From: a virus
Length of the DNA: 64,000 bases
Direction: 5' to 3' (one strand)
Virus record (IMG/VR): IMGVR_UViG_3300005265_000549
Coordinates: 1 to 64,000 of that record
In this document: positions 15,832-58,937 of the stretch, one piece after another
Layout: the number at the start of each line of letters is the position of its first letter
Position numbering within the stretch: position 1 is the first letter of the stretch
Translations under genes and position numbers: made by a program
The notes under the pieces: generated by a model
What the model saw: only the letters and a program-made list of their open reading frames with translations
Database searches by the model: none
What the model was told of the DNA's origin: nothing

Positions 15832-16209
15832 TTGCTAAATACTATTAGTTCAGAAGAAATTAATATGTTTGGTGAAAAATTTAAAATTGGACCAATTCAT
15901 TCAAAAAGATTATTGTTAATAAAAAAAATAGAAGAGAAAATTAAATTAATTAAAGATAATGAAAATAAAGAATTATGTTATCTTTTGTTGCAACTTATAA
16001 AGATGGGTAGATAAATGGAAACATTATATCGTAAAATTGAAAGAAATGAATGTGTAACTTTTGTTCCTATTATGATTCCAAAAAATGAAAATAAAATTCA
16101 TAAACAAATAATCGATAAAATAAATTTAGAAGAAAAATTATTGATTTCTATATTACTAATTAAAGAACCAAAAGAATTAGTAAAAAAAATTATGAGTTTG
16201 ATTTATTAA
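15832..16209 (+). other. two small hypothetical CDSs (15832-16014, 16015-16209)
   Basis: Abutting ORFs, AAGGAG upstream. Confidence 0.45.
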
Positions 16210-16257
16210 AATTTTACAAATTTATTTAATAATGTTATTATTTTAAAAGAGGTGAAA

Positions 16258-16419
16258 ATGTTAAAAAGAGATATTAAAAAAATTAAATGTGAAGAAGCGA
16301 TATTAAGAAATGAAAAATGGAATTCTTTATCTACCAAACAAAAAATTAAAAAATTAGATAATAGACTTGGTAAAGGTGTCGGAGCAATAAAACAAAGAAA
16401 ACGATTAGAAGAATTATGA
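16258..16419 (+). CDS. small basic protein not in the ORF track
   Basis: GAGGTG RBS; MLKRDIKK...KLDNRLGKGVGAIKQRKRL. Confidence 0.6.
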   Translation: MLKRDIKKIKCEEAILRNEKWNSLSTKQKIKKLDNRLGKGVGAIKQRKRLEEL

Positions 16420-16620
16420 TGAATATTGGATATGAAAAAACACATATAAGATTAATTAAAATTAAACATAGAATAGCTTTTCGACCAGGCAATTCCAAAA
16501 AAATATTAATGATATGCTAAATAATATTCCAGATGATGCGATTGTTGATAAAATTATTGATTCTAATGATGAAACTGATATTACTACTATTGAATTTATT
16601 GAAAAAATAAAGGAATTATA

Positions 16621-17034
16621 ATGAAAAAAATAAAAGTTTTTTGTAATTATTTTGATTATTCAATTTTGTGTGATTCTTTAGTTGAACAATTAAAAACAAA
16701 TAAACAATTAAAATTTATTTATGGAATTCCTACAGGTGGTTTACCATTAGCAGTTCATTTAGCAAAACATTTGAATTTAGAATTATTAGATGAAGAAGAT
16801 CTTTATTGGAACTGGAATTCTAAAGAATTATTAATTTGTGATGATATTATTGATACTGGAATTACTTTAGAAACTTTTTTTAAAGAAAGAGAATGGCTTA
16901 AAGAAGCTTTAATTGTTAGTTTATATTGGAAATATAATTTGTCAATTAAACCTAATTATTTTGCTAAAATTGCTAAAGAATATGAATGGATTGTTTTTCC
17001 TTGGGAACCAAAAAATGAAGAAATGAATAGATAA
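16621..17034 (+). CDS. purine phosphoribosyltransferase-like protein
   Basis: GIPTGGL, LICDDIIDTGIT, WIVFPWE. Confidence 0.85.
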   Translation: MKKIKVFCNYFDYSILCDSLVEQLKTNKQLKFIYGIPTGGLPLAVHLAKHLNLELLDEEDLYWNWNSKELLICDDIIDTGITLETFFKEREWLKEALIVSLYWKYNLSIKPNYFAKIAKEYEWIVFPWEPKNEEMNR

Positions 17035-17043
17035 AGAGGAAAT

Positions 17044-17985
17044 ATGTTTAAAAAATATCCAAGTATTACCAATCATTATCTTGAATCAGATATTGATTAT
17101 TTTCAAAAATATTTTAGTTATGATTTACTTAATACTGATTGGATACTTCAAGAAAAAATTCATGGTGCGAATATTTCTATTCTTTTAAATAAAAATGAAG
17201 ACCCTCAATTTTTCTCTAGAAATAATAAAATTGATCCAGCTAAATTTTACAATTCAACTAAAGTTTTTTCAGATATAATTAATGAATTTCAACCTTTTCA
17301 AAAAATTATTAATAAAGCTGGTTTTTCAATACGACTTTATGGTGAATTATTTGGTATGGGTATTCAAAAAGGAGTAAAATATGGACCTGAAAAACAAATT
17401 TTATTTTTTGATATGTTAATTAATGATAAATTCATTTCACCTTATGAAATGGAAGTTATATTTTTAAAAAATCGATTGCAACATTTATTGATTCCTAAAG
17501 TTGATGTCGTTTCAGATTTAAAAACTGCTATTAATTATGATATTAAATTTAATTCAAAAATTTTAAGAATTGAAGATAACATTTGTGAAGGAGTTGTTAT
17601 AAAACCTTGGAATAAAATTTTTGTTACTTCTAATGGTTCAATATTTTATATTAAAAAGAAAAATGAAGAATTCAAAGAAAAACAAAAAATAAAAAAACCA
17701 AAAGTTCTTAAAGATTATGGAGAAGAAGTAAACCAATGGCATGAAATTTTTATTTCGTATATTCATAAAGAAAGATTAGAATCTGTTTTTTCAAAAATTG
17801 GAAGAATTAATCATCCAAAAGATCTAGGAAAATATATACATGAAGTTTATAAAGATGTTATTGAAACTTTTTTAAAAGAAGAAAATTTTGATGAAGAAAA
17901 ATTCTCAAAAAAAGAAAGAAAATTTATAATGAATGGTAATAAAGAAATTGCTAAACTTTTGAAAAAAGAATTAGGAATGGTATAA
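17044..17985 (+). CDS. RNA ligase 2 (Rnl2 family)
   Basis: EKIHGAN, GELFG, FD, EGVVIKP, KKKNEEFKE, RLESVFSKIG. Confidence 0.88.
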   Translation: MFKKYPSITNHYLESDIDYFQKYFSYDLLNTDWILQEKIHGANISILLNKNEDPQFFSRNNKIDPAKFYNSTKVFSDIINEFQPFQKIINKAGFSIRLYGELFGMGIQKGVKYGPEKQILFFDMLINDKFISPYEMEVIFLKNRLQHLLIPKVDVVSDLKTAINYDIKFNSKILRIEDNICEGVVIKPWNKIFVTSNGSIFYIKKKNEEFKEKQKIKKPKVLKDYGEEVNQWHEIFISYIHKERLESVFSKIGRINHPKDLGKYIHEVYKDVIETFLKEENFDEEKFSKKERKFIMNGNKEIAKLLKKELGMV

Positions 17986-24452: not shown

Positions 24453-24979
24453 TAAAAACTTTTATTATTAATGGTGCTGGTGGTTCAGGTAAAGATACAT
24501 TTATTGCTTTTGTTGAAAATTATATTAATTCATTAAATTTAAATCCTCCTTGGTATGTTCGTAATAATTCTGCTATTGATGAAATTAAAGAAATTGCTAT
24601 CAAATATTTTGGTTGGAATAAAATTAAAACAAATATAAATCGAAGATTATTATCTGATTTAAAAGAAATGCAAATTACTTCTTGTGATGGACCTTATAAA
24701 TATATTCTTAATTTATATAAAACATATAAATTTTATGAAAATAATAATTGTTTATTTTTTCATATTCGTGAAATTCCTGAAATAAAAAAAATTAAAGATG
24801 AAATAAAAGCTAAAACTATTTTAGTTTATCGTAATGATGTTAAATATGGAAATAGAAGTGATGATGATATATTAAAGTATCATTATGATTATATCATTAA
24901 TAATCATGGTGATCTAAAAGATTTAAAACAATTAGCAATTAATTTTACTAATGAAAATATAATTAATAAAAAACCTTGA
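24449..24979 (+). CDS. dNMP kinase-like protein
   Basis: INGAGGSGKDTF, RRLLSDLK, HIRE, YDYIINN. Confidence 0.75.
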   Translation: MIKTFIINGAGGSGKDTFIAFVENYINSLNLNPPWYVRNNSAIDEIKEIAIKYFGWNKIKTNINRRLLSDLKEMQITSCDGPYKYILNLYKTYKFYENNNCLFFHIREIPEIKKIKDEIKAKTILVYRNDVKYGNRSDDDILKYHYDYIINNHGDLKDLKQLAINFTNENIINKKP

Positions 24980-25035
24980 CTTTATCTTTTCTTTATGTTA
25001 CTATGTAATTATAAACAATAACAAATTGAAAGGAA
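24970..25035 (+). promoter_or_regulatory. early promoter cassette, copy 6
   Basis: TTGACT(24976)-17-TACTAT(24999)...AACAAATTGAAAGGA. Confidence 0.85.
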
Positions 25036-26130: not shown

Positions 26131-26195
26131 CATAATTCTTCTCTTGATAAATATATTATATTTAATTATTATATATTTAAAGGAGAAGAATTATG
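26131..26195 (+). promoter_or_regulatory. late promoter (GATAAATA) inside an RBS/ATG-sequestering hairpin
   Basis: CATAATTCTTCTC (26131-43) pairs with GAGAAGAATTATG (26183-95); GATAAATA at 26146. Confidence 0.7.
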
Positions 26196-27062
26196 TCAAC
26201 AGATAATACCAATTTAGGTACATTAGAATCAGTAACAAGTGAGTTAACAGAATTAATTAAAGCAAATAGTATTGCTTATCAAGTTTGTGGTATTCAACAA
26301 ACAACCACTTCAACTCCAGTAGTTTTTGGAATTAAAAAAACATCTGGTACAACTGGATTTCAAATTGTTAAAAAAGATACAGTTAAAAAAGCGTCAACAA
26401 ATTCTGAAGGTTTTACAGATGAATTAATGGAAGATGTTTTTTCATTATTTGGAAAAAATGCTAAAGAATATTTAAAAATTATTTCAGCAAATGATTTAAT
26501 TGATTCATTAGATGATGAAATAATTTCATATATGTCTAGTATAGCAACAGTAGAAAATGCAGTAACTTATGATTTTTCTACAACTACAGATCATAGACAA
26601 ATAATCCATAATTTACTTTTAAAAATAAATAAAACAAGAGTTAGTATGGCAAACGATTTAAAACGTGGTCTTCCAAAAATTTTAATCGTTTCAAGTGCTA
26701 TAGCAGCTTTATTAATCACAAATAAAATGATTAGTGGGAATGATTCTGATTTTGTTGCAGGTGGAGCAGAAAATGTTAAATTTGTTGGTAAGATGGGTGA
26801 TATGCTTGTTTATCAAGATTTTGATGCAGCAGCAGATTATGTTTTAATTGCTCATAAATCATATATTCCTGGAGATGCAAGTATTATTTTAATTCCTATT
26901 AATGAACCGGTTGCGAATATTAGAAGAGATGATGAAACTGGTCAACCTAAATATCATTATAGAATGAGACATGCTTATTCTAGAAATCCTGTTGATTCAG
27001 GTTCTTCTACTGCGGATTCAGATTTTATTAGAAAATTTGCTGTTACATTAACTGATTTCTAA
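26193..27062 (+). CDS. gp23/gp24-like capsid (vertex) protein
   Basis: IAYQVCGIQ, FVGKMG...VYQD, DDETGQPK...RMRHAYSRNP resemble gp23/gp24 motifs; short (289 aa). Confidence 0.6.
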   Translation: MSTDNTNLGTLESVTSELTELIKANSIAYQVCGIQQTTTSTPVVFGIKKTSGTTGFQIVKKDTVKKASTNSEGFTDELMEDVFSLFGKNAKEYLKIISANDLIDSLDDEIISYMSSIATVENAVTYDFSTTTDHRQIIHNLLLKINKTRVSMANDLKRGLPKILIVSSAIAALLITNKMISGNDSDFVAGGAENVKFVGKMGDMLVYQDFDAAADYVLIAHKSYIPGDASIILIPINEPVANIRRDDETGQPKYHYRMRHAYSRNPVDSGSSTADSDFIRKFAVTLTDF

Positions 27063-27069
27063 AAATAAA

Positions 27070-27122
27070 AATCATGGTTTATTCTTCAAGATAAATATAA
27101 ACAAGGAGAATAAACCATGATT
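27070..27122 (+). promoter_or_regulatory. late promoter (GATAAATA) inside an RBS/ATG-sequestering hairpin
   Basis: AATCATGGTTTATTCT (27070-85) pairs with AGAATAAACCATGATT (27107-22); GATAAATA at 27090. Confidence 0.7.
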
Positions 27123-27488
27123 AAACAAACTAAAGAATTATATAAAAATATTCCCTATTGGGTAAAATTAGTTTCTTCAATTTTAGCTGTTACGATAACT
27201 TTAGGTGGAGCTGTTTTAGCAATGGAAGATCGTTATGTTTCTGAAAAAGAAGAAATTAAAACTCTTCAAATTTTTAATTCAAATATTCAACAAAATTTTA
27301 GATTAATGAATTTAAAAATTTTTCAATTACAATATGATCATTTAACAGATTCTTATTATCAATATAAAAAATTAAGAAGAAACCAACCAAATGATATTGA
27401 AATACAAGAAGAATTTGAAAGAATTAAAAATGAAAGAAAATTAATAAAAGAAAAAATAAATAAATTATTAGAAGAAAGAAATAAATGA
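27117..27488 (+). CDS. single-TM membrane protein with coiled coil (holin or lysis candidate)
   Basis: N-terminal TM, charged helical tail; function inferred only. Confidence 0.55.
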   Translation: MIKQTKELYKNIPYWVKLVSSILAVTITLGGAVLAMEDRYVSEKEEIKTLQIFNSNIQQNFRLMNLKIFQLQYDHLTDSYYQYKKLRRNQPNDIEIQEEFERIKNERKLIKEKINKLLEERNK

Positions 27489-28393
27489 AATCATTTTCTA
27501 CTGTATTTCAAGAAATGAAACAAACTAAAAGAGTTGGAATTCAACATCTAAATCAATTAAAACCATTAGATTTTATTAAATTAGTTAAATTAGTAAAAGA
27601 AGAAATGGGTGGTAAGATTTCTAAAACTAATTCTTCTGTATCCCTTAAAGTTGATGGTTTTGGATTAAGATTTGGATTAAATAACAAGGATGAATTTTTT
27701 ATTGAATCTTCTAATAGTGGCCCACAATTTAAAGTTGATGCTTTTTCAGAATACACAAAAAATAAAAAAGGTGAGGTTGATAAAATTTCAATTGCTTATG
27801 ATCAAGTATTTAAATCATTGAAATCAAATAAAAAACTTCAAAAGATTTTAAAAGAAAATAATACTGATTCAGGAATTAAAATTATTTGTGAATGTCTTTA
27901 CACTCCAATAGGTAAAAAAGATAAAGATAAAATTAAGTTTGTTAGTATAAATTATGATCAAAAAAAATTAGGTGAAATAGCAACTTTTGTATTAATTAAA
28001 GTTATTGATGGTGATAATAATATCTTAGATCAGAACATTCTAGAATACGTCAAAGAGCTATCTAGTAAACAATTTTTATTCACAGATGCTACTGTTACTT
28101 TAGATGATATTGATTTAACTATTGAAATTGATAATGTATTAAAATTTGTTAAAAAATATCCTGATTTAGATAAGATAGTATTAAGTAGAAAAAAAGTTGA
28201 TAAAGAAATAAAAAATTTAATTAAAGATACATTGAAAAATTATCAAGAACAAATGAGTGATAAATTATTGAAATCAATAAAATCAACTAAATTTGGAGAT
28301 GAATTTGAAGGAATAGTATTCAACTTATTAAAAGGAAAATCTTTTAAAGTAATTTCAAAATCTTTTAGTCAAGGTATTAAATTTAAACCATAA
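27485..28393 (+). CDS. ligase-like covalent nucleotidyltransferase domain protein
   Basis: GIQHL, motif I KVDG, motif IV EGIV, motif V FKV; CTS-like leader. Confidence 0.65.
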   Translation: MKSFSTVFQEMKQTKRVGIQHLNQLKPLDFIKLVKLVKEEMGGKISKTNSSVSLKVDGFGLRFGLNNKDEFFIESSNSGPQFKVDAFSEYTKNKKGEVDKISIAYDQVFKSLKSNKKLQKILKENNTDSGIKIICECLYTPIGKKDKDKIKFVSINYDQKKLGEIATFVLIKVIDGDNNILDQNILEYVKELSSKQFLFTDATVTLDDIDLTIEIDNVLKFVKKYPDLDKIVLSRKKVDKEIKNLIKDTLKNYQEQMSDKLLKSIKSTKFGDEFEGIVFNLLKGKSFKVISKSFSQGIKFKP

Positions 28394-28406
28394 ATAGGAT
28401 TAATAA

Positions 28407-29354
28407 ATGATTAATTTTAAAACTTTTTTACTTGAAATAAAAATTGAAAAAGAAATTAATGATAAATTATTATCTATTATTAATCGACTTGGTTATAATG
28501 ATATCAAAACAAATTCAAAATTTTATTTTTCTATTTTGACAAATAAAAATCGTATAGAAGTAATGAAAGAACTTGAAAAGGAAATTCAAAAAGAAATTCC
28601 AGAAGCAAAATGGGATATTTCCAGTTCCGGTTCTTCTATAGGAAATATTGTTATAGGTAAATTTAAGTTGGGAGTCAAACCAAAATCTAGACAAGGAAAA
28701 TCATCATTTGGTTTAGAAAATGAAATGACATTATTTAATATTCTTGATGAAATATTAATTAATAAACCAATCAATATAATTTTTTCTACTGGTAAAAAAG
28801 AATTTAAAATTGAAAATGCTGTAAGTTATAAAGATGTCGGAAATAATACAAAAAATAGAAAAAAAGCTGATATAATAATATTTGATGATAAAGGAAAAAA
28901 ATATTCTATTTCAATTAAGAAAGATAATGCTGAAAATTGGGAATCTGCTGATTCTTATTATGCTGATAAAGCAAAAAAAATAATAGATAAATTAATTTCT
29001 CAAGATAAAATTAAATTAGAGCCATATAGAAAAGGATTTAAATTAAATAAAAATATTGGAATTCTTGCAAATAAAAAAGAAATTAAAGATGTGGTTTTTG
29101 GAAGTGATATTTTAGGAAATGGTTGTGTAATTAAAAAAACATTTGATGGAAAATATGTGATAAAAGATGAAAATGTGATTATAAAAGTTTCTGAAATTAT
29201 TACAAACCTTTCTGAAATTCCAGAAAATGAAAAAGTATATTTTTTAATAAGAAATGATATCACAAGAAATAATCCTAAATTATATAAAGGAATTAGAATA
29301 TTAGCTGTTATGAAATCACGAATCAATAAATCAATTTTATTATATAAAGGATAA
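28407..29354 (+). CDS. PD-(D/E)xK-like nuclease-fold protein
   Basis: GLENE...KADIII...SISIKK; CTS-like leader. Confidence 0.5.
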   Translation: MINFKTFLLEIKIEKEINDKLLSIINRLGYNDIKTNSKFYFSILTNKNRIEVMKELEKEIQKEIPEAKWDISSSGSSIGNIVIGKFKLGVKPKSRQGKSSFGLENEMTLFNILDEILINKPINIIFSTGKKEFKIENAVSYKDVGNNTKNRKKADIIIFDDKGKKYSISIKKDNAENWESADSYYADKAKKIIDKLISQDKIKLEPYRKGFKLNKNIGILANKKEIKDVVFGSDILGNGCVIKKTFDGKYVIKDENVIIKVSEIITNLSEIPENEKVYFLIRNDITRNNPKLYKGIRILAVMKSRINKSILLYKG

Positions 29355-29599
29355 AAATGTTAAAAAAAACTTTTAAGGATTTTTATCATGTTGAAAATCC
29401 TACATCATTTATTAATTCAAGAATTAATTAAAATTTCATTTGAAAAAGAAAGTTATGATGTACTTTCTACTTTTTATAAGAAACATCCTTATTCGTTAAT
29501 AACTATTGATAAATATATTTCTAATATGTTAAATAAAAAAATAAGAAAAAAGTAAAAAAACATTTTTTAAATTTTATAAAAAACAAAAAATAAAATGGA

Positions 29600-30733
29600 A
29601 TGATAATGGGTGGTAATATTAAATTAATAAAATTTAAATCTTTTTGTTTACAAGAAGGTGGAAATGTTCATGTGGGTGATGTATCAGCACAACAAATCAC
29701 ATCTAAAGTGAATCGAACCAAATTAGTAAACGATTTAATTAAAAATCTTTTGATTTTAAATAATCAATTCCAAAAAGAATATGGATTGAAAATTTGGAAA
29801 AATGAATCATATCTTAAATCAGGTGAAGTTTTTTCTGGTTCTTCAGAACATTTTATTAATTTAAATATTTCTGATGAAGAATATTTAAAACATAAACCAA
29901 AAACTGGTGATATTGATATACAAATAGATAAATCTTTAGAAACTAATTTACATGATTTTTTTAAAAAACATAATAAATTTGGAACTATGGAATATCTAGG
30001 TCAATCTCAAACAGCTATTGGACAAATTTCTTCTTTATTTAAAATTGATGGATATATGGAAAAATCTGAAAAGAAAAGAAGATTAGTTAAAAAGAAAATT
30101 CTGATCCAATTAGATTTTGAATTTGTAGATGTTGATGAAAAAGGTAAACCAACTGAATGGTCTAAATTTTCTAGATCATCTAATTGGAGTGATATTGAAA
30201 ATGGAATAAAAGGTGTTTTTCATAAATTTGCATTAGCAAATATCGATCATGTGTTTACTAAAAAAATTAAAATTAAAAAAGGTAAACGTAATCCAAAAAT
30301 TATAGAACAAGAAATTCATTTTTTTGCATTCTCAGTACAAAATGGATTAAGACCTAAATATCGTCCTGTTCCAAATGAAAAAGATGTATGGGAAGCAATA
30401 CCTTCTAAAGAAGGAAATTATACACAAGATATTTCACAAATTTTTGAAACTCTTTTTAGAAAAAAACCAGGAAAAACTGATCGGGATTTATTTAATTCAT
30501 TTGTTGGTATTATTGAATTAGTTAAAAAATATTTTAATAAAAAACAACAACAAAAATTTGTTAATGCTTTTGTTGAGTTTATTTGGGGCAAAAATGCTCA
30601 AAAATTATATAGAGGTAACCCTCTACAAGATGCTGAAGTTAAAAATGCAGCAATGAATTATATTGAAAAAAAATTAAAAATTAAAAAGTCTAAATATGAT
30701 TCTATTATAAATAATTATTATAAAAATTATTAA
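29600..30733 (+). CDS. Pol-beta-like nucleotidyltransferase
   Basis: LQEGGN, GSS...TGDIDIQ, QLDFEF, IKGVFHK. Confidence 0.65.
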   Translation: MIMGGNIKLIKFKSFCLQEGGNVHVGDVSAQQITSKVNRTKLVNDLIKNLLILNNQFQKEYGLKIWKNESYLKSGEVFSGSSEHFINLNISDEEYLKHKPKTGDIDIQIDKSLETNLHDFFKKHNKFGTMEYLGQSQTAIGQISSLFKIDGYMEKSEKKRRLVKKKILIQLDFEFVDVDEKGKPTEWSKFSRSSNWSDIENGIKGVFHKFALANIDHVFTKKIKIKKGKRNPKIIEQEIHFFAFSVQNGLRPKYRPVPNEKDVWEAIPSKEGNYTQDISQIFETLFRKKPGKTDRDLFNSFVGIIELVKKYFNKKQQQKFVNAFVEFIWGKNAQKLYRGNPLQDAEVKNAAMNYIEKKLKIKKSKYDSIINNYYKNY

Positions 30734-30754
30734 GGTATGAGAGAAGGAAAAACG

Positions 30755-31090
30755 ATGGATAAATTTGAAACTTTCTTATTGGAAAAAACAATAAAATTTC
30801 CAACTGATGAATTTGATGAATATAAAAATAGAATTCCTGTTCCGGAAGATTTTAATATATTTATTAAATCTTGGTTAATAAAAAATTCAAATAGATTAAA
30901 AGATGAATTTATTATTCAAGCAATTGAAGATGTAGCTTTTAGTTTAAATAAAAAATATAGTTATATTCCAGGAATAAATTTTGAAGTTGCAGGAAAAAAA
31001 TTAAGTATTTATACTAAATCAGGTCAATTTGTTTTCACTTGTGATCAAAAAATAACGTTTAAAAAAATTAAAAAATTAATAGGAATTTAA
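30755..31090 (+). CDS. hypothetical protein with CTS-like leader
   Basis: AAGGA RBS, then MDKFETFLLE. Confidence 0.55.
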   Translation: MDKFETFLLEKTIKFPTDEFDEYKNRIPVPEDFNIFIKSWLIKNSNRLKDEFIIQAIEDVAFSLNKKYSYIPGINFEVAGKKLSIYTKSGQFVFTCDQKITFKKIKKLIGI

Positions 31091-34000
31091 ATGAATAGTT
31101 TAAATAAATTATTTGAAAATAGTTTATATAGTAATGATCAAGAAAAATCTGATTTTGTTAATTCAGAAAAACTTGTTCATATTGCTTTTTGGATTGGTTT
31201 TTTAGGTCCTATTTTTCTTTATATTAATAGTGATAATCCAGTAATTAAAAAATATTTTAAAAGTGATAAAAAATTAAGAATAGATGCTATTACTGATGAT
31301 AATAATGATACTTCTTTAACTCTAAGTTTAATTAAAACATCTATACCTCCGGCTTTAGTTAATAAAATTACAAGATTTCTTGTAAGACTTAAATCTGGTC
31401 AAAAAATTGATGAAGATCTTTTTAAGAAAGAAATATTTGATCCATTATATAAAAAAACAATTAATTTAACTTTAAGTCCTCAAATTAAACGAACATTAAA
31501 AAGTTATTATAATGGTAATCTTTCAAGTTTAGATGTAGTAAAAACATTCATTATTAATGCTAGAAGATGGAAAATTTGTAATGAATTTAAATTTTTAGCT
31601 AGAAAATGTAAAATTAAAGGTGAAGTAAAAATTTCAAAAGATACTTCTAATGATTCGAATATAATTAAAAAAGATAATAAAGATGGTGCTTCTACTGATA
31701 CAACTGTGATTAAACCACCTATTCCTGCCTGGGAAAATTATCTTATTGATTTTGCTAGTAAAATTAATAATAAAGAAATTAGAGCAATTTTTGAAGAAGA
31801 TCTAATTTCTTACTTTAAAGGTGAAATGTATGGACAAACATATCGAAATATCACGTTTCGTAATATGGATGTTTTTTTTGATTTAGTTTTAAGTTTAGAT
31901 AAAAATCAACTACCAGACGTTAAATTTAACATTAGATTAATGGAAATAAAATCATTTCATTTACCATTAATTTTATTATCTTTGAATCCAAAATTAACTG
32001 ATAAAATTAAACAAACATCTTTTAGTAATATTGAACATACTGGATTGGATTATTTCAATCCAATCTTTTATTTAATGTTTTTTTATAAATTTAGTTCAGC
32101 AAGAATTATAACTGAAAAATGTTTTGCTGAAATGTCTATTGATTTATATTATAATACAATAGTTAAAGAAATGGCTGCAAATTCAAAAGGAATAGAATTT
32201 TTTACAATAGATTGGATTGCTGATTTTTTCTTTAATAACTTATATAAATTGGAAGATAAAGATTATTTTGTTTCTTTAATTAAATTTTTAATTAATAATC
32301 TTACATCTAAAGAATTTATTATGCTTAAATCAAAAGTGAATGATAATTTAAAAAACCGTTTAATTAAATATGGACTCTATCATTTATTTGAAAAACTACC
32401 TATTGATAAAATTAAAATGTATGATTTTCAACAATTTATAGAAACTATTATGTCATCATCTTATAGTATGAATAAAATTTTTGAAGATTATAGAAAAGAA
32501 TATTTACCAGATAATTCTCTAGAAGAAATAAAAAAAATATTCTTAAATCAAGATTTTAATGATCTTGATTTCAGTCGATTGAATAATGCTTTATCTTATA
32601 TTTCTGTATATGATCCTATTTTTATTGAAAAATTATGTGAATTTTTTAATAATGAGAAAAAAATTGTAGATTTAATTGATAAAATGATTAAAAATTTTAA
32701 TAATAATGATAATTCTTTAAATCGTTTAAGATCTCATTTTATTATTTTATTTCCTAATTACTTTTCTGAAAAAGAAAGAAATGAAATTTTTGAAAAAAAT
32801 ATCATTTCTTTAATAAATGTATTACAATATTGTCATGATAATAAATCATTATCAAATTTAGAAAATTGGAAATATGAATATTGTGAAAAAATAATTAATT
32901 ATTTAACAAATAATAATAAATTCGATAAGAAAGAAAATTCAATTATTTCAAATATTAATTTAAATTTATTCAAACTTTTTGGTGATGTCTGGGCTAAAAA
33001 ATTATTTTCTAAATTTAAAGATAATTTTCTAAAAAATTATTTTCTAATTTCTTCTATTTATTCTAAAAATAAATTAAAAATTGAAATTTTACGTTTTAGT
33101 AAAATTTTAGATAAAAATATTATTTTTAAAATAATTAGTGATAGTGATGATAATGATCAAAAAGAATTAACATTACAAAAAATTAATGAGTTATTTATAA
33201 CAATCGTTGATAAATTTGATAATTCAATAGATATAGAAAGTTTAGAAAAAATTATTGAAACATTAAATGAAAAATTAGAATTTTCTAGTGATATGAATCA
33301 ATATCAAAAAAAATTCATAACTATTGAATTGCTTACAAAAAATATAAAATATAAAAATAATAAAATAATTGAAAATTTTTATGTTAATTTATTTAAACAA
33401 AATCCAGGATTTTTTTGTAAATTAAATTTAAAAAATTTAAAAGATTTAGAAGAAATAATTAAAAAACATCTTTCAAAAAAACAAATTGCAGAAATTTTTA
33501 AAAATAAAAGTACAGAAGATATTATAGGTGAAAGATTTAATATAAATAATATAAATTTTATAAATTTAATAGACGATAATGATAAAAAAATTGAATTTTT
33601 TAAAAAATATATTAATGAATATAAACGTCAAGTGAATTCTTCTTTAAAAAGAGGTGGAATTATTCCTAAAATTAATAATTTTGCTTTTGATTTATATCAA
33701 AAAGATCCAAAAATTATTGATAAATTATTTGATGAATTAGATCTTTCAACTAAAAATCAATTATTTGCTGAATTAAGAACTTTTGTTACTATAGCACCAT
33801 TATTAAGCAATATACATACTTCACCAGTTGTTCCATTAAAAAAATTAAAATCTGAAGATATTAGAAATGCTTTAAAATATAATAAATTTGAAATTGCAGA
33901 AGTTATAAAAGTTAGAAAAAGAAAAGGTGAAACATATTCTGAAACATTGAAAAGAACTATTAAAATTGCTGATGCTTCACAAAATAAAATTCCTAAACAA

Positions 34001-34948
34001 AAAGTTGAAGAAGTAGAATTAACTGAAAAAGAAATAGCTGAAAAAACTTATAATTTAAATAAAAAATATCATGCAGGAAAACATGGAAGTATTGGAATTC
34101 AATTACTAAAAGAATTTAATGTATCATTACCTGAAGAAGAATGGAAAGCTTTTAGAGAAGAATGGAAAGATAAAGGTGATGGAATTTTATATCCTATGTT
34201 TCATGGAACAAATGGAACAGCTGCTTCAATGATTTTAAGATTTGGTTTTGCTATTTTATCTGTTAAAGAATTATCTTCAGCCGGTGGAAAATATGCTGGT
34301 AATATGTTAGGTGCTGGTGTTTATACTGCTCCTAACATGGATAAAGTTGCTAATTATATTGGTGAACAAAATTATGGACAATTAGGTTCTATTGGATATT
34401 TATTTGAAATTGATCAAACTTTAGGTGAAAAAAATAATCATTATCGAACAATGGGGCATGGTGGAGATAGAATTCGTTCACCTGAATATTGTTCTAAATA
34501 TCCTAGAAAACAATTAAAAATTGTAAAATGTTATAAAGCAGTAAAATCATCATTAAAACATATTTCAAAAACTGCTAGTAAAAATGGAGTAAAATTAGAT
34601 GAAGCTTTTGAAAATCAAATACATAAAGGAATTTTAATGGAAAGTGATGAATTAGATATGATAATTGATGAAGGTTGGACTAATTTTATTTTTATGGATG
34701 GTTATATTCCTATTGGTAATAATGATGCTTTAAATTTCAGTTTTGTAACTTCTCAATTTTATGATGATATTCAAATTACACAAAATCAAGATGGTATAGT
34801 ATATTCAATAAAAAATGATATAGGTAATTTTGAAACTTTTAAAATTCCAGATACTTTTTTTGCTATTGAAGAAAAAGATCCTATTATATCAAAATTTTTA
34901 AATATGACAAAAGATAAATTAATTATTGATAAAGAAGAAATAAAATGA
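31091..34948 (+). CDS. large protein with a C-terminal PARP-like (H-Y-E) ADP-ribosyltransferase domain
   Basis: MFHGT...ILRFGF...AGNMLGAGVYTA...KVANY...SPEY. Confidence 0.75.
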   Translation: MNSLNKLFENSLYSNDQEKSDFVNSEKLVHIAFWIGFLGPIFLYINSDNPVIKKYFKSDKKLRIDAITDDNNDTSLTLSLIKTSIPPALVNKITRFLVRLKSGQKIDEDLFKKEIFDPLYKKTINLTLSPQIKRTLKSYYNGNLSSLDVVKTFIINARRWKICNEFKFLARKCKIKGEVKISKDTSNDSNIIKKDNKDGASTDTTVIKPPIPAWENYLIDFASKINNKEIRAIFEEDLISYFKGEMYGQTYRNITFRNMDVFFDLVLSLDKNQLPDVKFNIRLMEIKSFHLPLILLSLNPKLTDKIKQTSFSNIEHTGLDYFNPIFYLMFFYKFSSARIITEKCFAEMSIDLYYNTIVKEMAANSKGIEFFTIDWIADFFFNNLYKLEDKDYFVSLIKFLINNLTSKEFIMLKSKVNDNLKNRLIKYGLYHLFEKLPIDKIKMYDFQQFIETIMSSSYSMNKIFEDYRKEYLPDNSLEEIKKIFLNQDFNDLDFSRLNNALSYISVYDPIFIEKLCEFFNNEKKIVDLIDKMIKNFNNNDNSLNRLRSHFIILFPNYFSEKERNEIFEKNIISLINVLQYCHDNKSLSNLENWKYEYCEKIINYLTNNNKFDKKENSIISNINLNLFKLFGDVWAKKLFSKFKDNFLKNYFLISSIYSKNKLKIEILRFSKILDKNIIFKIISDSDDNDQKELTLQKINELFITIVDKFDNSIDIESLEKIIETLNEKLEFSSDMNQYQKKFITIELLTKNIKYKNNKIIENFYVNLFKQNPGFFCKLNLKNLKDLEEIIKKHLSKKQIAEIFKNKSTEDIIGERFNINNINFINLIDDNDKKIEFFKKYINEYKRQVNSSLKRGGIIPKINNFAFDLYQKDPKIIDKLFDELDLSTKNQLFAELRTFVTIAPLLSNIHTSPVVPLKKLKSEDIRNALKYNKFEIAEVIKVRKRKGETYSETLKRTIKIADASQNKIPKQKVEEVELTEKEIAEKTYNLNKKYHAGKHGSIGIQLLKEFNVSLPEEEWKAFREEWKDKGDGILYPMFHGTNGTAASMILRFGFAILSVKELSSAGGKYAGNMLGAGVYTAPNMDKVANYIGEQNYGQLGSIGYLFEIDQTLGEKNNHYRTMGHGGDRIRSPEYCSKYPRKQLKIVKCYKAVKSSLKHISKTASKNGVKLDEAFENQIHKGILMESDELDMIIDEGWTNFIFMDGYIPIGNNDALNFSFVTSQFYDDIQITQNQDGIVYSIKNDIGNFETFKIPDTFFAIEEKDPIISKFLNMTKDKLIIDKEEIK

Positions 34949-35508
34949 TATCATTTAAAAAATATTTAGAAGAAGCACTTTCATTAGATAATGTAAATAA
35001 AACACCTGGTAAAAATAAAGTTGTTGTAATGATGGGTCGTTTTCAACCACCGACTATCGCACATTTAGATATAATTGAAAAAGCATATAAAAAATATAAA
35101 CTTCCTGTTATTATTGCAATAGTAAAATCAAAAAATAAAAATTCACCTTTTTCAGTAGATATAATTAAAAAAATGATTAAAGAATCTATTAAAGGAAAAA
35201 TAGAATTTTTAGAACTTTCAAGTGGTTTTATTGGAGATTTTATTTCTCCATTAAGAGATAAAAATTTAGAACCAACAATTTTATTTGCTGGTTCTGATCG
35301 AATAAAAAGTTATGAAAATCAAATTGAACGATATAAAGAATTATTTGATTTAAATTTAACAGTAGAAGAAATAAAACGAAATGATGATGATGTTTCAGCA
35401 TCAAAAGTCAGAGATGCTTTAAAGAATAATGATGAAGAAAGTTTTAAAAAATTAATGTCAAAAAATTTACATAAATATTTTAAAAAATTAAAAGGGATGA
35501 TGGTATGA
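34945..35508 (+). CDS. HIGH-family cytidylyl/adenylyltransferase-like protein
   Basis: GRFQPPTIAH, AGSDR, VSASKVRDAL. Confidence 0.85.
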   Translation: MISFKKYLEEALSLDNVNKTPGKNKVVVMMGRFQPPTIAHLDIIEKAYKKYKLPVIIAIVKSKNKNSPFSVDIIKKMIKESIKGKIEFLELSSGFIGDFISPLRDKNLEPTILFAGSDRIKSYENQIERYKELFDLNLTVEEIKRNDDDVSASKVRDALKNNDEESFKKLMSKNLHKYFKKLKGMMV

Positions 35509-35699
35509 AAACATATAAAGAGATTTTAAATGAAAGATTGGGAAAAGGTACTGGTAGAGAATTTGATGATGGTGAAGATACTTGTAAATGTCCTAAATGT
35601 GGATTTGAAACAGAACATAAAGCTGGAACTCCTTGTTTAGAAACAAAATGTCCTAAATGTGGAACAGCAATGAAAGGAAAAAGCAAAGTAAATGATTAA
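35505..35699 (+). CDS. double Zn-ribbon small protein
   Basis: CKCPKCG..H..GTPC...KCPKCG; leader MKTYKEILNE. Confidence 0.7.
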   Translation: MKTYKEILNERLGKGTGREFDDGEDTCKCPKCGFETEHKAGTPCLETKCPKCGTAMKGKSKVND

Positions 35700-36024
35700 T
35701 TATAAAGAAATTCTAGAAGCAAAAAAGAAAACTGCAAGAGAATTGAAAAAAATTTTAGAAAGTTCTGATTTTGGTTATACAGAAGCTGGTGGAAATGGTC
35801 GATGTAAAATTAAAGGTAAAAACCTTATTGTTTATAATTCTTATTGGGCAGGGAGCCAAAGACATCTTGATAATTTAATCAAATCTTGGTCTCCAAAAGG
35901 ATCAAATTATGAATATTTTAAAGAAGAAGGTTTTGATATAAAAATAATTAATTCTGGTTCTGAACCTAAAAGTAAAATTTATAAAGGTGAACCATCTGTT
36001 TGGGTTGAATTATCTGTAACTTGA
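35692..36024 (+). CDS. hypothetical protein with CTS-like leader
   Basis: MINYKEILE. Confidence 0.6.
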   Translation: MINYKEILEAKKKTARELKKILESSDFGYTEAGGNGRCKIKGKNLIVYNSYWAGSQRHLDNLIKSWSPKGSNYEYFKEEGFDIKIINSGSEPKSKIYKGEPSVWVELSVT

Positions 36025-36040
36025 TAAAAATATCACTACT

Positions 36041-36170
36041 TTTTAAAAAAATCAAATGAATTACTTTTTTCTATTTTTTTATTAATAAAATTAAATACTT
36101 ACAATACACTTTTTTCAAAAAAAGTAAAAACATACCAAGGTGTATGTTAGATTTCTATAAATTTTAAATT
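36041..36170. repeat. dispersed non-coding repeat, copy A
   Basis: ATTAATAAAATTAAATACTTACAATAC (36081-36107) and CAAGGTGTATGTTA are identical to copy B. Confidence 0.8.
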
Positions 36171-36183
36171 AAAAGACTTTTTT

Positions 36184-36999
36184 ATGAAAAACTTTAAAGA
36201 TTACATTAGGTTACACGAATCATTAATTACTTTTGGTGGAAAGACTTTTCCAAAATTTAATAATATAGTAATTATTGCTGGTGGTCCCGCATCCGGAAAG
36301 AGTTTTATTAGAAAATATTTATTAGGTTTATCTGGAAAAATATTTGATGTTGATCAATTAAAAGATTTAACATTATTAACTATCGAATTAAAAAATAAAA
36401 TTAAAGAAAAGTTTGCTATTGATTTAGATAATTTTGATTTTAATGATGCTGAAAAAGTTTCTGAATTACATTCAATTTTGAGGGGAATGAAAATTCAAGA
36501 TAAAAAAATTAAAACTTTTCTTTTGAATACAGTAGGTAATAAAAATAAACCTAATATAATTTTTGATTTAACTTTAGATTCTTTATATTCATTAAATACT
36601 ATTACTAAATTAGTCATTCCTTATGGTTATGATAAAAAAAATATTCATATTGTTTGGGTTGTTAAAGAAATAAAAGAAGCTATTAAATTAAATAAAACAA
36701 GAGAAAGAAATATAGATCCAGATATTTTAATTAATAAACATGAAAATGTTGCTAATACATTCAAAAATATTTTATCAAATAAATCTAGATTTCAAAAATG
36801 GGTTGATGGTGATATTTGGGTTGTTTTTAATAAAACTGATGTTGATACTATTTTAAAAAATTCTGGAAATGGTGGTAGTTATATTGAAAAAGCATTAACA
36901 ATAAAAATTAAAGAACAGGGTAAAAAAATTAAAGATAGAAAAAGTATGGATAAAGATTTTTTACATAAATTATCTAAATATACTAAAAGACATTTTTAA
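36184..36999 (+). CDS. P-loop kinase (zeta-toxin/AAA_33-like)
   Basis: IAGGPASGKS, DVD, IIFD.T, RER; leader MKNFKDYIRLHE. Confidence 0.75.
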   Translation: MKNFKDYIRLHESLITFGGKTFPKFNNIVIIAGGPASGKSFIRKYLLGLSGKIFDVDQLKDLTLLTIELKNKIKEKFAIDLDNFDFNDAEKVSELHSILRGMKIQDKKIKTFLLNTVGNKNKPNIIFDLTLDSLYSLNTITKLVIPYGYDKKNIHIVWVVKEIKEAIKLNKTRERNIDPDILINKHENVANTFKNILSNKSRFQKWVDGDIWVVFNKTDVDTILKNSGNGGSYIEKALTIKIKEQGKKIKDRKSMDKDFLHKLSKYTKRHF

Positions 37000-37001
37000 A
37001 T

Positions 37002-37030
37002 TTTACATTTTTAATCATTTATTATATAAT
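37002..37030 (+). promoter_or_regulatory. sigma70-type promoter for the deazaguanine cluster
   Basis: TTTACA-17 bp-TATAAT. Confidence 0.6.
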
Positions 37031-38731: not shown

Positions 38732-39787
38732 ATGAAACAATTTATAATTTTTTCATTAGAACAATTAGAATCTAGATATACAAAAGAATGGTTTGATCAT
38801 CTACCTTTATTATTTAATGATAAATTAGGTGATAAATTTGAAATTATTCAAATTAATGGTGAAACCACATCTAATGTTCCAACTCCTGGAGCATTTCTAG
38901 ATTTTGCCGCAACTAATTTATGGAAAAATGAACAAATAAATAAATTTTTTCATATGTTAGAAAATATAAAAAATGATGCTTTTATTTTATTTACTGATGC
39001 TTGGAATCCAACTATATTAGAAATAAAATATATTAAAGATTTATTGAAAAAAAATTGGACTATTATGTCTTTTTGGCATGCTGGATCTTATATTAATTCT
39101 GATCCCTTAGGACAATTAATTTCAGATAAAAATTGGTCTTATTCAGCAGAATTATCATTTTTTCATGCTTGTGATTATAATATTTTTGCCACAAATGATC
39201 ATATAAAACAATTTAAAAAAGTATTAAATATAGGAGAAAATTTTAATCATAAAATAATTCGATCAGGATTTCCAATGGAATATATTCAAAAAATTCCTTT
39301 TCTTAATATTGGGAAAAAAAATACGATTGTTTTTGCTGCAAGAAATTCTCCTGAAAAACAACCTGAGATTTTTGATATAATTTCAAAAAAATGTCCAGAA
39401 TATAAATGGGTTAATTGTCAACAAGAAAATTTTACAAAAAGTCAATATCATAATATTCTAGCAGAATCTAAAATATGTATTTCTTTTGCTTTATTAGAAA
39501 CTTTAGGAATTATTCAACATGAAGCCTTACAAGCTAGATCAATTCCTTTAGTTCCTAATCATTTATGTTATCCAGAAGAATATCTTCCTAATTGTAATTT
39601 TTTGTATGATGCTGATATCATAAAAGGTGAAATAAATTATTATAAAATTATTGAAATGATTCATAATTTCATAAATAATTATAATAAATATCAAAATGAA
39701 TTAGAAGAAAATTTAATATATCAAAGAAAAAATTATTTTTCATGTGATATTTTAATTCAAAAAATTAAAGGAGTTTATTATGAATGA
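38732..39787 (+). CDS. GT-B glycosyltransferase
   Basis: RNSPEKQPE, ETLGIIQHEA (Ex7E), YPE. Confidence 0.75.
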   Translation: MKQFIIFSLEQLESRYTKEWFDHLPLLFNDKLGDKFEIIQINGETTSNVPTPGAFLDFAATNLWKNEQINKFFHMLENIKNDAFILFTDAWNPTILEIKYIKDLLKKNWTIMSFWHAGSYINSDPLGQLISDKNWSYSAELSFFHACDYNIFATNDHIKQFKKVLNIGENFNHKIIRSGFPMEYIQKIPFLNIGKKNTIVFAARNSPEKQPEIFDIISKKCPEYKWVNCQQENFTKSQYHNILAESKICISFALLETLGIIQHEALQARSIPLVPNHLCYPEEYLPNCNFLYDADIIKGEINYYKIIEMIHNFINNYNKYQNELEENLIYQRKNYFSCDILIQKIKGVYYE

Positions 39788-40544
39788 AAATTTTGAATCA
39801 ATAGATTTAAAAGAGTTTTTATTAAAACATTGGTATGAAAAATATCATAATTATGAAAACTTTGAAAAAACAATGAATAATTATAAAAATTTACCAATCT
39901 TTAAAGCTAATGAAAATGTTTTTGAAATGGGTTATAAATTTGATGATGAAACTCATTTTCTTATGCGAATGATAACACAATATTTTATTACACAAGCTTT
40001 TAAAGCTATGAAAATTGATATGAATGATGATAATATAGCTGAAAATTTTAATGAAGAAAACATTGGAACACCTGGGAGAATTGCAAAAATTTGGTGTGGT
40101 AAAAATACTGAAGATGATTCAGAATTAGGTAGTGGTAGATGGTGTAAACCACCAAGATTAGCAAAATTTAAAAATGTAAACGATCAACATTTTGTGATTG
40201 AAAAAACAATCGAATTGACTTCAAGTTGTTCACATCATTTTCTTCCTTTTAGTACATTATTTAATGATAGATCTTTTTGTACTATTAAATATATTCCTAA
40301 AGATTATGTTATTGGAATCAGTAAATTAAAAAGATTTATTAATGATTTTATTGCTAAAAGATTTTATTTGCAAGAAGATTTAACAAAAAATATTGGTGAT
40401 GCTTTACAATATATTACACAATCTGATGATGTTTATGTTAAATTATATAAACTTCAACATAGTTGTGAAAAATTTCGTGGCGCTAAAGATTCTCAAGGTG
40501 CAATGACAACAGAATATAAAACAGGAAAATTTTTAAATGAATAA
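39780..40544 (+). CDS. folE: GTP cyclohydrolase I
   Basis: TPGRIAK, CSHHFLPF, GISKL, LQEDLT, HSCEKFRG. Confidence 0.92.
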   Translation: MNENFESIDLKEFLLKHWYEKYHNYENFEKTMNNYKNLPIFKANENVFEMGYKFDDETHFLMRMITQYFITQAFKAMKIDMNDDNIAENFNEENIGTPGRIAKIWCGKNTEDDSELGSGRWCKPPRLAKFKNVNDQHFVIEKTIELTSSCSHHFLPFSTLFNDRSFCTIKYIPKDYVIGISKLKRFINDFIAKRFYLQEDLTKNIGDALQYITQSDDVYVKLYKLQHSCEKFRGAKDSQGAMTTEYKTGKFLNE

Positions 40545-41808: not shown

Positions 41809-42252
41809 ATGAAAACGTATAAAGAACAAATGGAAGCTGAAATATTAGAACAAGAAAATGTTGATGATGAACTTTATGATAAAATTTTAGATTTTTTAAT
41901 TAGTTTAGATCCTGATGTTTTACCAGAAGATCAGGCTGATCTTCTTCATGAAATCTTAGATGAATTATTTGATGATTTTGATGATCTTTATGATGATGAT
42001 GATGTTGGCGATGGCGATGAAATTGAAGGTGAAACTATTACAACTGAAGCTTTTGCTGCAAAGAAAAAAAGAATTTCACCCGCTGAAAAAAATAAACGTA
42101 AAAGATTATATCGTAAAAATAAATCAAAAATTAAGATGAAAGCTAAAAAACGTAGAAAGACAGCTTCTTTCAAACGTTATAAAAAGAAAGCAAAAAGAAT
42201 GGCTAAAAAAGGTAAGACTGCTTCAGGTAAACGTCGTACTAAATTTATCTAA
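41809..42252 (+). CDS. prohead core or internal-protein-like (acidic N-terminus, basic C-terminus)
   Basis: MKTYKEQMEAEILE leader; D-rich then K/R-rich; GATAAATA at about 41631. Confidence 0.55.
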   Translation: MKTYKEQMEAEILEQENVDDELYDKILDFLISLDPDVLPEDQADLLHEILDELFDDFDDLYDDDDVGDGDEIEGETITTEAFAAKKKRISPAEKNKRKRLYRKNKSKIKMKAKKRRKTASFKRYKKKAKRMAKKGKTASGKRRTKFI

Positions 42253-52878: not shown

Positions 52879-53121
52879 TTATAATGATTCTTTCAAACCT
52901 TTATTTAATGTTCTCAATAGTTCTTTAACCATTTTTTTATTTTCTAATAATTTTTTAGAAAACATCAATGGATAAAAACCTTTACCATCTAATTTATATG
53001 TGACAGTGATATAATCATTTTTATCTGGTTTTGACATTCCAGTATATTCTAAAATTTCACCAGATTGAGTTGTTGTTGTTTCTTCATTTAATTCATTGAA
53101 TATTTCATTAAAAGATTTCAT
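52879..53121 (-). CDS. hypothetical protein with CTS-like leader
   Basis: MKSFNEIFNELNE. Confidence 0.55.
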   Translation of the reverse strand: MKSFNEIFNELNEETTTTQSGEILEYTGMSKPDKNDYITVTYKLDGKGFYPLMFSKKLLENKKMVKELLRTLNKGLKESL

Positions 53122-58754: not shown

Positions 58755-58770
58755 AAAAATTCTCCATAGT

Positions 58771-58872
58771 CTATAAATTTTAAAAAAAATCGTTTAATCG
58801 TCATTTTCTGTTTTTTCATTAATAAAATTAAATACTTACAATACGCTTTTTTCAAAAACAAGGTGTATGTTA
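58771..58872. repeat. dispersed non-coding repeat, copy B
   Basis: 58818-58844 identical to 36081-36107; CAAGGTGTATGTTA at 58859. Confidence 0.8.
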
Positions 58873-58937
58873 AAAATAAGTAAAATTTTATTTATTTGAT
58901 TTTTTTATAAAACTTTAATAATTTCATTAACTTACAT

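Follow-up and report, generated by a model that had tools for sequence, protein, structure and literature searches.

The leader-bearing genes at 27485-36999

The sequence analysed here (the window) is the first 64 kb (64,000 nucleotides) of IMG/VR virus record IMGVR_UViG_3300005265_000549, an 89,201-base contig that is rated 48% complete by CheckV and that derives from an uncultured, very AT-rich phage (GC content of the window, ~22%). The clamp, clamp loader and RegA genes are those of a T4-type myovirus, as is the set encoding the small and large terminase subunits, sheath, tube, gp15, gp14 and baseplate hub; a gene for an NAD-dependent ligase and 7-deazaguanine genes are also present. Early and middle genes occupy the plus strand from 1 to 48 kb, and structural genes the minus strand from 48 kb on. 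At 27485-36999 lies a block in which all nine credible genes encode products with a short leader of the form M-x-x-(F/Y)-x-x-hydrophobic-hydrophobic-x-E. The leader is like the capsid targeting sequence of T4 internal proteins, and the phage probably carries the tagged enzymes of this block inside its virion.

All nine genes are on the plus strand, and in the following account a slash marks the predicted cleavage position. They encode an RNA-ligase-fold enzyme (27485-28393; MKSFSTVFQE/MKQTKRVG), a two-domain protein (28407-29354; MINFKTFLLE/IKIEKE), a putative Pol-beta-type nucleotidyltransferase (29600-30733; IKFKSFCLQE/GGNVHV), a 111-residue protein without a family match (30755-31090; MDKFETFLLE/KTIK), a putative PARP-like ADP-ribosyltransferase (ART) of 1285 residues and 149 kDa (31091-34948; a short leader, MNSLNKLFE/NSLYS), a cytidylyl/adenylyltransferase-fold enzyme (34945-35508; MISFKKYLEE/ALS, with a linker of ~15 residues before the Rossmann strand), a 64-residue zinc-ribbon protein with two CxxC pairs (35505-35699; MKTYKEILNE/RLGK), a 110-residue protein without a family match (35692-36024; MINYKEILE/AKKK) and a P-loop kinase-like protein (36184-36999; MKNFKDYIRLHE/SLITFGG). 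A preliminary description of this DNA had placed leaders on nine genes here, and all nine were found, with the start or position corrected in two. In ORF 30737-31090 the leader begins at Met7 (30755), the second Met of the ORF, behind GAAGGA. In ORF 29600-30733 it is embedded at residues 10-19 (M-I-M-G-G-N-I-K-L-IKFKSFCLQE-GGNVHV), and the true start codon of this gene is uncertain. GGN stands on both sides of the embedded leader, an arrangement that might result from insertion of the leader just after an older MGGN start. A doubtful ORF of 55 codons (29388-29555) precedes this gene.

The same leader recurs, as had been described, on two single genes outside the block. MKTYKEQMEAE begins a 147-residue protein (41809-42252, plus strand) that is acidic in its N-terminal half, very basic in its C-terminal tail and similar to an internal protein, and MKSFNEIFNE begins an 80-residue protein (52879-53121, minus strand) encoded between two tail-tube-like genes.

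Enrichment of the leader motif

Enrichment of the motif in the block, for which the preliminary description had proposed a test, is borne out by counts over the whole 89-kb contig. A strict pattern (^M..[FY]..[FILVYM][FILCMV].?E) matches 9 of the 127 ORFs, six of them among the ten ORFs of the block and three among the 117 elsewhere (Fisher p=3e-6). A looser pattern matches 13 of the 127, eight of which are in the block (Fisher p=4e-8). Two of the strict matches outside the block, at 51107 (gp51-like) and 59011 (the gp14 neck protein, whose N-terminus aligns with the gp14 family), are probably due to chance, since the residues matched there are part of conserved family domains.

In a proteome rich in K, N, F, I, Y and E, at 22% GC, the leaders might be a chance resemblance: the motif residues are among the commonest in the genome, and the matches at 51107 and 59011 do look like chance. 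The internal Met positions of the same proteins provide a control for AT-rich codon bias, and there the strict pattern occurs at only 2 of 355 positions on the 89-kb contig. On the 137-kb sequence obtained by joining an adjoining contig (see below), it matches 13 of 196 true N-termini and 2 of 553 internal Met positions (binomial p=7e-13). This control, the clustering in six of ten neighbouring ORFs, and the recurrence of the leaders in relatives and across whole families lead us to reject composition as the explanation, which we regard as extremely improbable.

Similarity to the T4 capsid targeting sequence

The T4 tag MKTYQEFIAE, with which the leaders had been compared, is present twice in the T4 genome, in ipII and ipIII. 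Mutational studies of this tag, reviewed in PMC9026906, assign residues 4 and 7 to targeting and residues 8 and 10 to processing, and these four mapped positions are the four constrained positions of the leaders in this phage. Both are N-terminal tags of ~10 residues in which position 4 is aromatic, positions 7 and 8 are hydrophobic and position 10 is Glu. The closest leader in the window, that of the zinc-ribbon protein (MKTYKEILNE, 35505), shares six of ten residues with the T4 tag. The targeting positions (aromatic 4, hydrophobic 7) fit exactly at 27485, 28407, 30755, 34945, 35505, 35692, 36184 and 52879; 41809 fits at position 4 only, with Gln at 7, the ART leader at 31091 has Leu at 4, and the motif in 29600 lies nine residues in. 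The processing positions (hydrophobic P3, Glu P1) read FQE, LLE, LQE, LLE, LFE, LEE, LNE, ILE, LHE and FNE.

As a positive control the strict pattern was applied to the 260 ORFs of T4, where it matches only ipII, ipIII and gp61.1, and none of 1061 internal Met positions. It misses ipI, in which the Glu is at residue 19 (MKTFKEF...ITE/A), and natural tags therefore tolerate spacing variation such as that of 36184. The hydrophobic-x-Glu rule also holds for T4 gp24 (MAKINELLRE/S), gp23 (..FLTE/AEIGG) and Alt (MMELITE/LFDE). The third strict match in T4, gp61.1, is a hypothetical protein of 54 residues (NC_000866, 18966-19130; L089) that starts with a perfect capsid targeting sequence, MKTFKEFIKE, and may be an unrecognised T4 internal protein.

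The resemblance extends to the proteins behind the tag. As in T4, the cargo proteins are otherwise unrelated to one another and basic, and, as described below, genes for a scaffold (gp22) and a gp21-type protease are present too. The phage differs from T4 in that at least 17 tagged genes are present on 137 kb, compared with three or four in T4, and in that the cargo proteins are often large enzymes (30-150 kDa) rather than small inhibitors. It further differs in belonging to a distant, very AT-rich host lineage, in having one leader displaced from the annotated N-terminus, and in being known from sequence alone.

The leader as a detachable module

In our view the strongest computational argument for the capsid-targeting interpretation is that the leader behaves as a module that is present or absent on otherwise similar proteins, and in four cargo families homologues occur both with and without it. 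In the RNA ligase family (27485), most members have a leader followed by (M/A/S)-x-x-T-K-R-V-G-I-Q-H-L, and four leaderless members start at this conserved stretch, which coincides with the predicted cut after Glu. In the 29600 family the predicted mature N-terminus GGN is conserved: Mendera_048 and Va1_161 (of Vibrio phage Va1) are leaderless and start MGGNVV and MGGNVSV, and Campylobacter phage CP220 gp100 and gene 1-56 of Campylobacter phage IBB_35 start MKLSELMFILE/GGN. A cut after the Glu would therefore recreate the N-terminus that leaderless relatives have after Met removal. The 34945 product has ~25 extra N-terminal residues relative both to its homologue in Stenotrophomonas phage Mendera, which starts directly at the Rossmann strand, and to solved structures.

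The 28407 family (360 representative homologues) is mostly leaderless, with leader patterns matching from seven (strict) to ten (loose) of 147 representatives and a few more appearing similar by eye. Members of the ART family (31091) have leaders of 6-18 residues that end in hydrophobic-x-E and are followed by a conserved N-S/T-L/I-Y, one member starting MKRLQSFIAE. A start of the form M-K/Q-x-F-x-x-F/H/Y-L/I-x-E characterises nearly all full-length members of the P-loop family (36184) in 62 IMG/VR loci, and the leader is also present in the cultured Aeromonas phage 65 (gp142); most homologues have a second L-L-E site ahead of K-L-I-T-F-G-G.

The tag is conserved and the cargo varies between relatives, a pattern described for the polymorphic internal-protein loci of T-even phages (PMC3012670). 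The closest relative found (L047) has the near-identical leaders MKTFKEILNE, MKTFKELFEE and MKSFRETLFEE on partly different small proteins, the last of these on its homologue of 41809. The interval from the gp23 paralogue to gp45 is ~4 kb in L047 and 15 kb in this phage.

These comparisons bear on the alternative that the N-terminal peptide has a different function (for example, a RegA-type or translation-initiation element in the RNA, a degradation tag or a membrane-association helix) and that the enzymes act in the cytoplasm only, in an ordinary pathway of RNA repair and nucleotide metabolism, as leaderless homologues presumably do. Mendera carries the same enzyme set without leaders, as neighbouring genes, and this phage has a RegA homologue and AU-rich sequence at all of the starts. 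However, conservation is at the amino acid level, with F and Y alternating at position 4, eight codons in use at position 7 and Glu fixed, and the leader is kept across very different hosts and lineages, the P-loop family being an example with members in Aeromonas, Klebsiella and marine phages. The boundary after the Glu corresponds to the start of leaderless homologues, one tagged homologue has been detected in virions, and the leader lacks a hydrophobic stretch of the signal-peptide type. We therefore consider such an alternative function quite unlikely.

Prohead protease and scaffold genes on an adjoining contig

No gp21 protease or gp22 scaffold was found on the 89-kb contig. An exact search with the last 45 bases of this contig identified IMGVR_UViG_3300005265_000008 (48,122 bases), the first 104 bases of which are identical to the contig end, and joining the two gives a sequence of 137 kb (G001, L074-L076). 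The join is consistent with the presence of an identical 27485 ligase protein on a 139,980-base contig. By CheckV's estimates about a quarter of the genome is still missing. Located on the joined sequence are gp23, gp22, gp21, portal, gp55, gp46/47 and DNA replication genes. Among those on the adjoining contig are a prohead protease (Peptidase_S77, PF03420, 3e-27), a gp22 scaffold (T4_CASP, PF25623, 3e-33) containing 23 hydrophobic-x-E sites, and a gp55-like sigma factor (a weak match). The gp23 major capsid protein is encoded at 88651-89943 of the joined sequence, and its predicted maturation site ELQE/ASSSS aligns with T4 FLTE/AEIGG. A blastn search of the head-gene region against the phage collection gave no match.

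Six further tagged ORFs are present on the adjoining contig (MKSFREYLIE, MKSYKEFLLLE, MKKFKELHE, MKTFKSLFIE, MKTYKEILAE and MKTYKEILIE), in two clusters (118032 and 128221), which brings the total to at least 17 among the 196 ORFs of the joined sequence. A tagged protein of 173 residues (joined sequence 118951-119472; L075:9854-10375) contains FYHGT and has a weak match to the RNA 2'-phosphotransferase KptA/Tpt1 (E=0.006); RNA-end healing by a packaged enzyme is a possible role.

The ORF in the portal position (joined sequence 91540-94425; L074:2443-5328, minus strand) is 961 codons long, compared with 524 residues for T4 gp20, and may contain an intein or an inserted domain.

Virion detection of a tagged homologue and charge of the cargo

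A homologue of one of the tagged proteins has been detected in virions. Gene 1-56 of IBB_35 (vB_CcoM-IBB_35; 39251-40417, 44.4 kDa), the 29600 homologue with the leader MKLSELMFILE, was identified by mass spectrometry in purified virions with 17% coverage, and the same virion proteome also lists gene 1-30 (MNFYNLIYE..) (PMC3322345). In papers on Jiaodavirus (PMC13119998), DLP6 (PMC5349666) and a cyanophage (PMC3037559) we found no virion data mapping to the P-loop or ART families. On IBB_35 contig 1 (L008), the GenBank entry at 15971-17890 is annotated as a 'PhoH family precursor' whose mature peptide starts 16 codons in, which suggests that those who annotated the record had already thought of N-terminal processing for this group of phages.

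T4 internal proteins have been described as highly basic. The predicted mature cargo of this phage has a median pI of 9.4, compared with 6.8 for the other proteins, and the pI exceeds 9 in 13 of 17 tagged proteins and in 58 of 179 others (p=5e-4).

Predicted functions of the tagged proteins

The 27485 product is an ATP-dependent RNA-ligase-fold enzyme, as judged from sequence motifs and a structural model (the class tested being Rnl2-Rnl5-like). This supports the earlier description of a ligase-like KxDG protein. Some of its 49 homologues have PF09414, which is not matched by 27485 itself, and K55-x-D57-G58, E136, E275-G276 and K288 are invariant in 26 sequences. The model has a pLDDT of 89, with residues 1-8 under 50 (disordered), and Foldseek relates it with a probability of 1.0 to Naegleria RNA ligase, T4 Rnl2, TbREL1 and T4 Rnl1, at a TM score of only ~0.45. 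A tblastn search against the phage collection gave no match to 27485, and related-locus searches with 27485 and with 29600 returned no relatives. Sequence searches of the PDB yielded nothing useful for 27485 (as a single sequence or as a profile), the ART domain or the P-loop protein.

The 28407 product (phrog_12709) is predicted to have two domains. VIA-align relates the N-terminal one (residues 4-96) to the small nucleotidyltransferase palm of URT1 (Z 9.7), and the C-terminal one (residues 100-304, 147 residues aligned) to the restriction endonuclease HhaI (Z 6.0). The model has a pLDDT of 95.7, K153, D155, S169 and K171 are conserved, and atlas leads are HinP1I, HaeIII and MspI, with scores of 0.87-0.89; Foldseek with this model gave no match below E=0.07. 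A PD-(D/E)xK or restriction-endonuclease-like C-terminal domain is only a lead.

Atlas comparisons place 29600 (phrog_19290), a putative Pol-beta-type enzyme, among viral clusters named 'nucleotidyltransferase family' (0.97), and its structural matches begin at residues 13-19. The protein carries GSSEHF and GDIDIQ, and PF01909 is found in 33% of the members of one related atlas cluster; 29600 itself has no Pfam or NCBIfam match.

The C-terminal domain of 31091 (phrog_18612) is a putative PARP-like (H-Y-E) ADP-ribosyltransferase. Its Pfam PARP match (4e-4, 20.3 bits) is below the cut-off of 26.7, and PF00644 is found on 15 of its 28 homologues, with H-G, Y and E invariant in 18 aligned sequences. 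The preliminary description had listed an ADP-ribosyltransferase; the domain is PARP-like and not of the Alt type. The protein is like T4 Alt, which is packaged in the head and cut by gp21, in being a large ADP-ribosyltransferase with a short propeptide ending in hydrophobic-x-Glu (MMELITE/ in T4, MNSLNKLFE/ here) and in its predicted role, the early modification of host targets using NAD+. It differs in having a PARP-like domain (H-Y-E, with PF00644 on homologues) and not one of the Alt/VIP2 type, in being twice as long, and in having a hydrophobic segment near the N-terminus. Membership of the Alt/VIP2 family was rejected, since there is no tblastn match between 31091 and T4 or Alt at 1e-3 and the domain is PARP-like, and the sequence comparisons make 31091 an analogue of Alt and not a homologue.

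For 34945 a nucleotidyltransferase of the HIGH family had been proposed, and the generic cytidylyl/adenylyltransferase domain is recognised (Pfam CTP_transf_like 2.7e-8; TIGR00125 above cut-off). A NadR-like pairing of 34945 with 36184, as NMN adenylyltransferase and ribosylnicotinamide-type kinase, was considered as a candidate. Only this generic cytidylyl/adenylyltransferase domain passes, the NMNAT and PPAT models being far below their cut-offs. Matches in PDB and NCBIfam begin at residues 25-28, and among the seven cargo proteins searched with NCBIfam this was the only one matched. The P-loop protein (GGPASGKS) has a Walker A motif and a weak Zeta_toxin match, is aligned from residue 1 with phrog_5268 (5e-74), and belongs to a family present in 215 cultured T4-like phages. 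A 34945-type domain is fused to a P-loop kinase domain in proteins of ~610-640 residues (L048-L050, and L054, which is Tenacibaculum phage PTm1), and we conclude from this fusion that 34945 and 36184 are functionally linked; the fusion does not indicate a substrate.

These functions are relevant to the alternative in which the leader is a true targeting sequence and cut propeptide on proteins that act in head assembly or stay in the capsid, for DNA condensation or as scaffold accessories. The T4 core proteins gp67, gp68 and gp22 are loaded and cut without being effectors (PMC9026906), and several of the cargo proteins here are small, basic and without an assigned function. The large cargo proteins, however, have enzyme folds with intact motifs (ligase K-x-D-G, ART H-Y-E) and no obvious capsid role, and T4 provides precedents in Alt and IPI, both of which are ejected to act inside the host (PMC3012670, PMC9026906). 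A purely structural role for the tagged proteins thus appears unlikely.

Candidate promoters and timing

The end of the early region is marked by the last copy of a sigma-70-type early promoter cassette (TTGAC-N5-CTTTTCTTTATGTTAYTAT; 24976-25004, plus strand), upstream of 25042. There are six copies of this strong cassette between 4036 and 24976, all on the plus strand (none expected by chance) and serving the early and middle genes, and none in the remainder of the window (25005-64000), including the block. The octamer GATAAATA is a candidate late (gp55-type) promoter. On the plus strand it is found at 26146-26153, 39 nt upstream of 26193, at 27090-27097, 19 nt upstream of 27117, and at 29508-29515, within the doubtful 55-codon ORF and 84 nt upstream of 29600. 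The octamer is likewise found upstream of gp23 (28 nt), gp22 (45 nt) and the sheath gene (49 nt), of the tagged clusters 118032 and 128221 and, at a distance of 170 nt, of 41809; no copy was noted ahead of the single gene 52879-53121. Directly after the block, a strong sigma-70-like promoter (TTTACA-17-TATAAT; 37002-37030, plus strand) restarts the queD-dpdA unit.

Two genes, 26193 and 27117, precede 27485. The first, a head-related gene that opens the putative late unit, encodes a gp23 paralogue of 289 residues (26193-27062, plus strand; Pfam Gp23 3.7e-23, phrog_138) that is without the N-terminal third, has 54% identity to its counterpart in L047, and may be a gp24-like vertex protein. The second (27117-27488, plus strand) encodes a leaderless 123-residue protein with one hydrophobic helix, a charged coiled-coil-like tail and no family match, and its stop overlaps the start of 27485 (ATGA).

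The preliminary description had placed the block downstream of late-type promoters. The T4 late promoter TATAAATA was rejected as a marker, its 29 copies having no relation to late genes, and what remains of the proposal is that GATAAATA precedes both structural genes and tagged clusters. A generic sigma-70 scan was uninformative in this composition (150 sites, with 160 expected). The evidence for late expression of the block with the head genes is suggestive, short of proof.

A model for packaging and the possible roles of the cargo

The leaders are likely to be functional counterparts of the T4 capsid targeting sequence. The preliminary description had proposed a T4-type arrangement in which late-made proteins enter the prohead and are trimmed behind the Glu, and this is supported by several independent computational lines and by the virion proteome of a phage with a tagged homologue. 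We infer docking, cleavage, late timing, ejection and action of the enzymes on the host. A plausible scenario is that the genes would be expressed late, along with the head proteins, and that the N-terminal peptide of ~10 residues, with its aromatic residue at 4 and hydrophobic residue at 7, would dock each protein on the gp22 scaffolding core during prohead formation. The gp21-type prohead protease would then cut after the Glu of the hydrophobic-x-Glu sequence at positions 8-10, and the basic mature protein would remain with the DNA in the head and exit with it at infection.

Several observations weigh against this scenario. The ART and P-loop leaders depart from the ten-residue form, and that of 29600 is preceded by 7-9 residues counted from the annotated start, an arrangement that is not known to function in T4. 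In the model of 28407 the leader is not a free peptide but forms the first part of a confidently predicted helix. The protease and scaffold genes are on a second contig, from another sample, and the join consists of 104 identical bases only. The IBB_35 proteome is shallow: two other leader-bearing ORFs were undetected, and the N-terminal peptide was not covered. Late timing depends on an 8-nt motif in a genome of 22% GC, where 37 same-strand copies are found, many of them inside genes, and transcription from the early promoter at 24976 could continue into the block. Homologues in Mendera and in many other phages lack leaders, and the enzymes therefore evidently work unpackaged. The leaderless Mendera genes lie next to one another and comprise those for the adenylyltransferase, the nuclease-like protein, the nucleotidyltransferase and a protein with weak similarity to the ligase (33% identity over 42 residues, E=8e-4), and we regard this set as a functional unit.

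What the enzymes would do after delivery is more speculative. It is possible, though we hold this only tentatively, that they form an in-capsid kit acting before any phage gene expression and comprising RNA repair, NAD+/ADP-ribose enzymes and a restriction-like nuclease. The RNA-repair set would consist of the RNA ligase, the nucleotidyltransferase, the kinase and the KptA-like protein, and the NAD+/ADP-ribose part of the PARP-like transferase and the adenylyltransferase. The restriction-like nuclease could attack unmodified host DNA while sparing phage DNA modified with 7-deazaguanine. If so, RNA repair, NAD+/ADP-ribose chemistry and nuclease activity could be delivered as protein, and phages would pre-package counter-defences against tRNA-cleaving and NAD+-depleting immunity, with a bearing on how they escape abortive-infection systems that act before phage gene expression.

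Head-loaded ADP-ribosyltransferases and RNA-repair or nucleotide enzymes deployed at injection have also been described among polyvalent effectors and NAD+/ADP-ribose enzymes (Iyer 2017, 2022; PMC5512222, PMC9503650), and ADP-ribosyltransferases have been proposed to be often virion-packaged in myoviruses (PMC9503650). In those systems packaging was deduced from MuF or portal fusions and gene neighbourhood, whereas here the enzymes are separate proteins with a detachable T4-type tag. The ejection proteins of the giant phages phiKZ and SPN3US are comparable in that a prohead protease of the same family cleaves many head-internal proteins behind a Glu (PMC5694885, PMC9026906), but the cut motif is different, no common ten-residue targeting tag is known there, and the phage described here is T4-type and not phiKZ-type.

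The tag itself and its use on diverse internal proteins of T-even phages are already published, as is the suggestion that T4-like phages can load a variety of proteins by means of it (PMC3012670, PMC9026906). In literature searches we found no report of T4-type tags on an RNA ligase, nucleotidyltransferase, adenylyltransferase or kinase. The general principle being known for T4, what is gained is breadth, together with predictions that can be tested: in a distant, AT-rich lineage the tag has hardly changed, and at least 17 proteins bear it, large enzymes among them. Injected proteins decide the first minutes of infection, yet they have been identified in very few phages. Should the tag prove as portable as it seems, the injected cargo of thousands of T4-like phages, cultured or uncultured, could be predicted from sequence, and the tags are natural parts for loading foreign proteins into phage heads.

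Other features of the window

A Hef-type homing endonuclease gene encoding 574 residues (53651-55375, minus strand) is situated between the tail tube and sheath genes, and the C-terminal 255 residues of its product have 49% identity to Hef of Campylobacter phage IBB_35. An intergenic element of ~120 nt is present twice in the window on the same strand, at 36025-36190 and 58755-58930, with no matches expected by chance. The first copy is upstream of the P-loop gene and the second, in opposite orientation to the gene, is upstream of the large terminase gene. A core of ~45 nt around TTAATAAAATTAAATACTTACAATAC is nearly identical in both copies and is followed by the shared block CAAGGTGTATGTTA.

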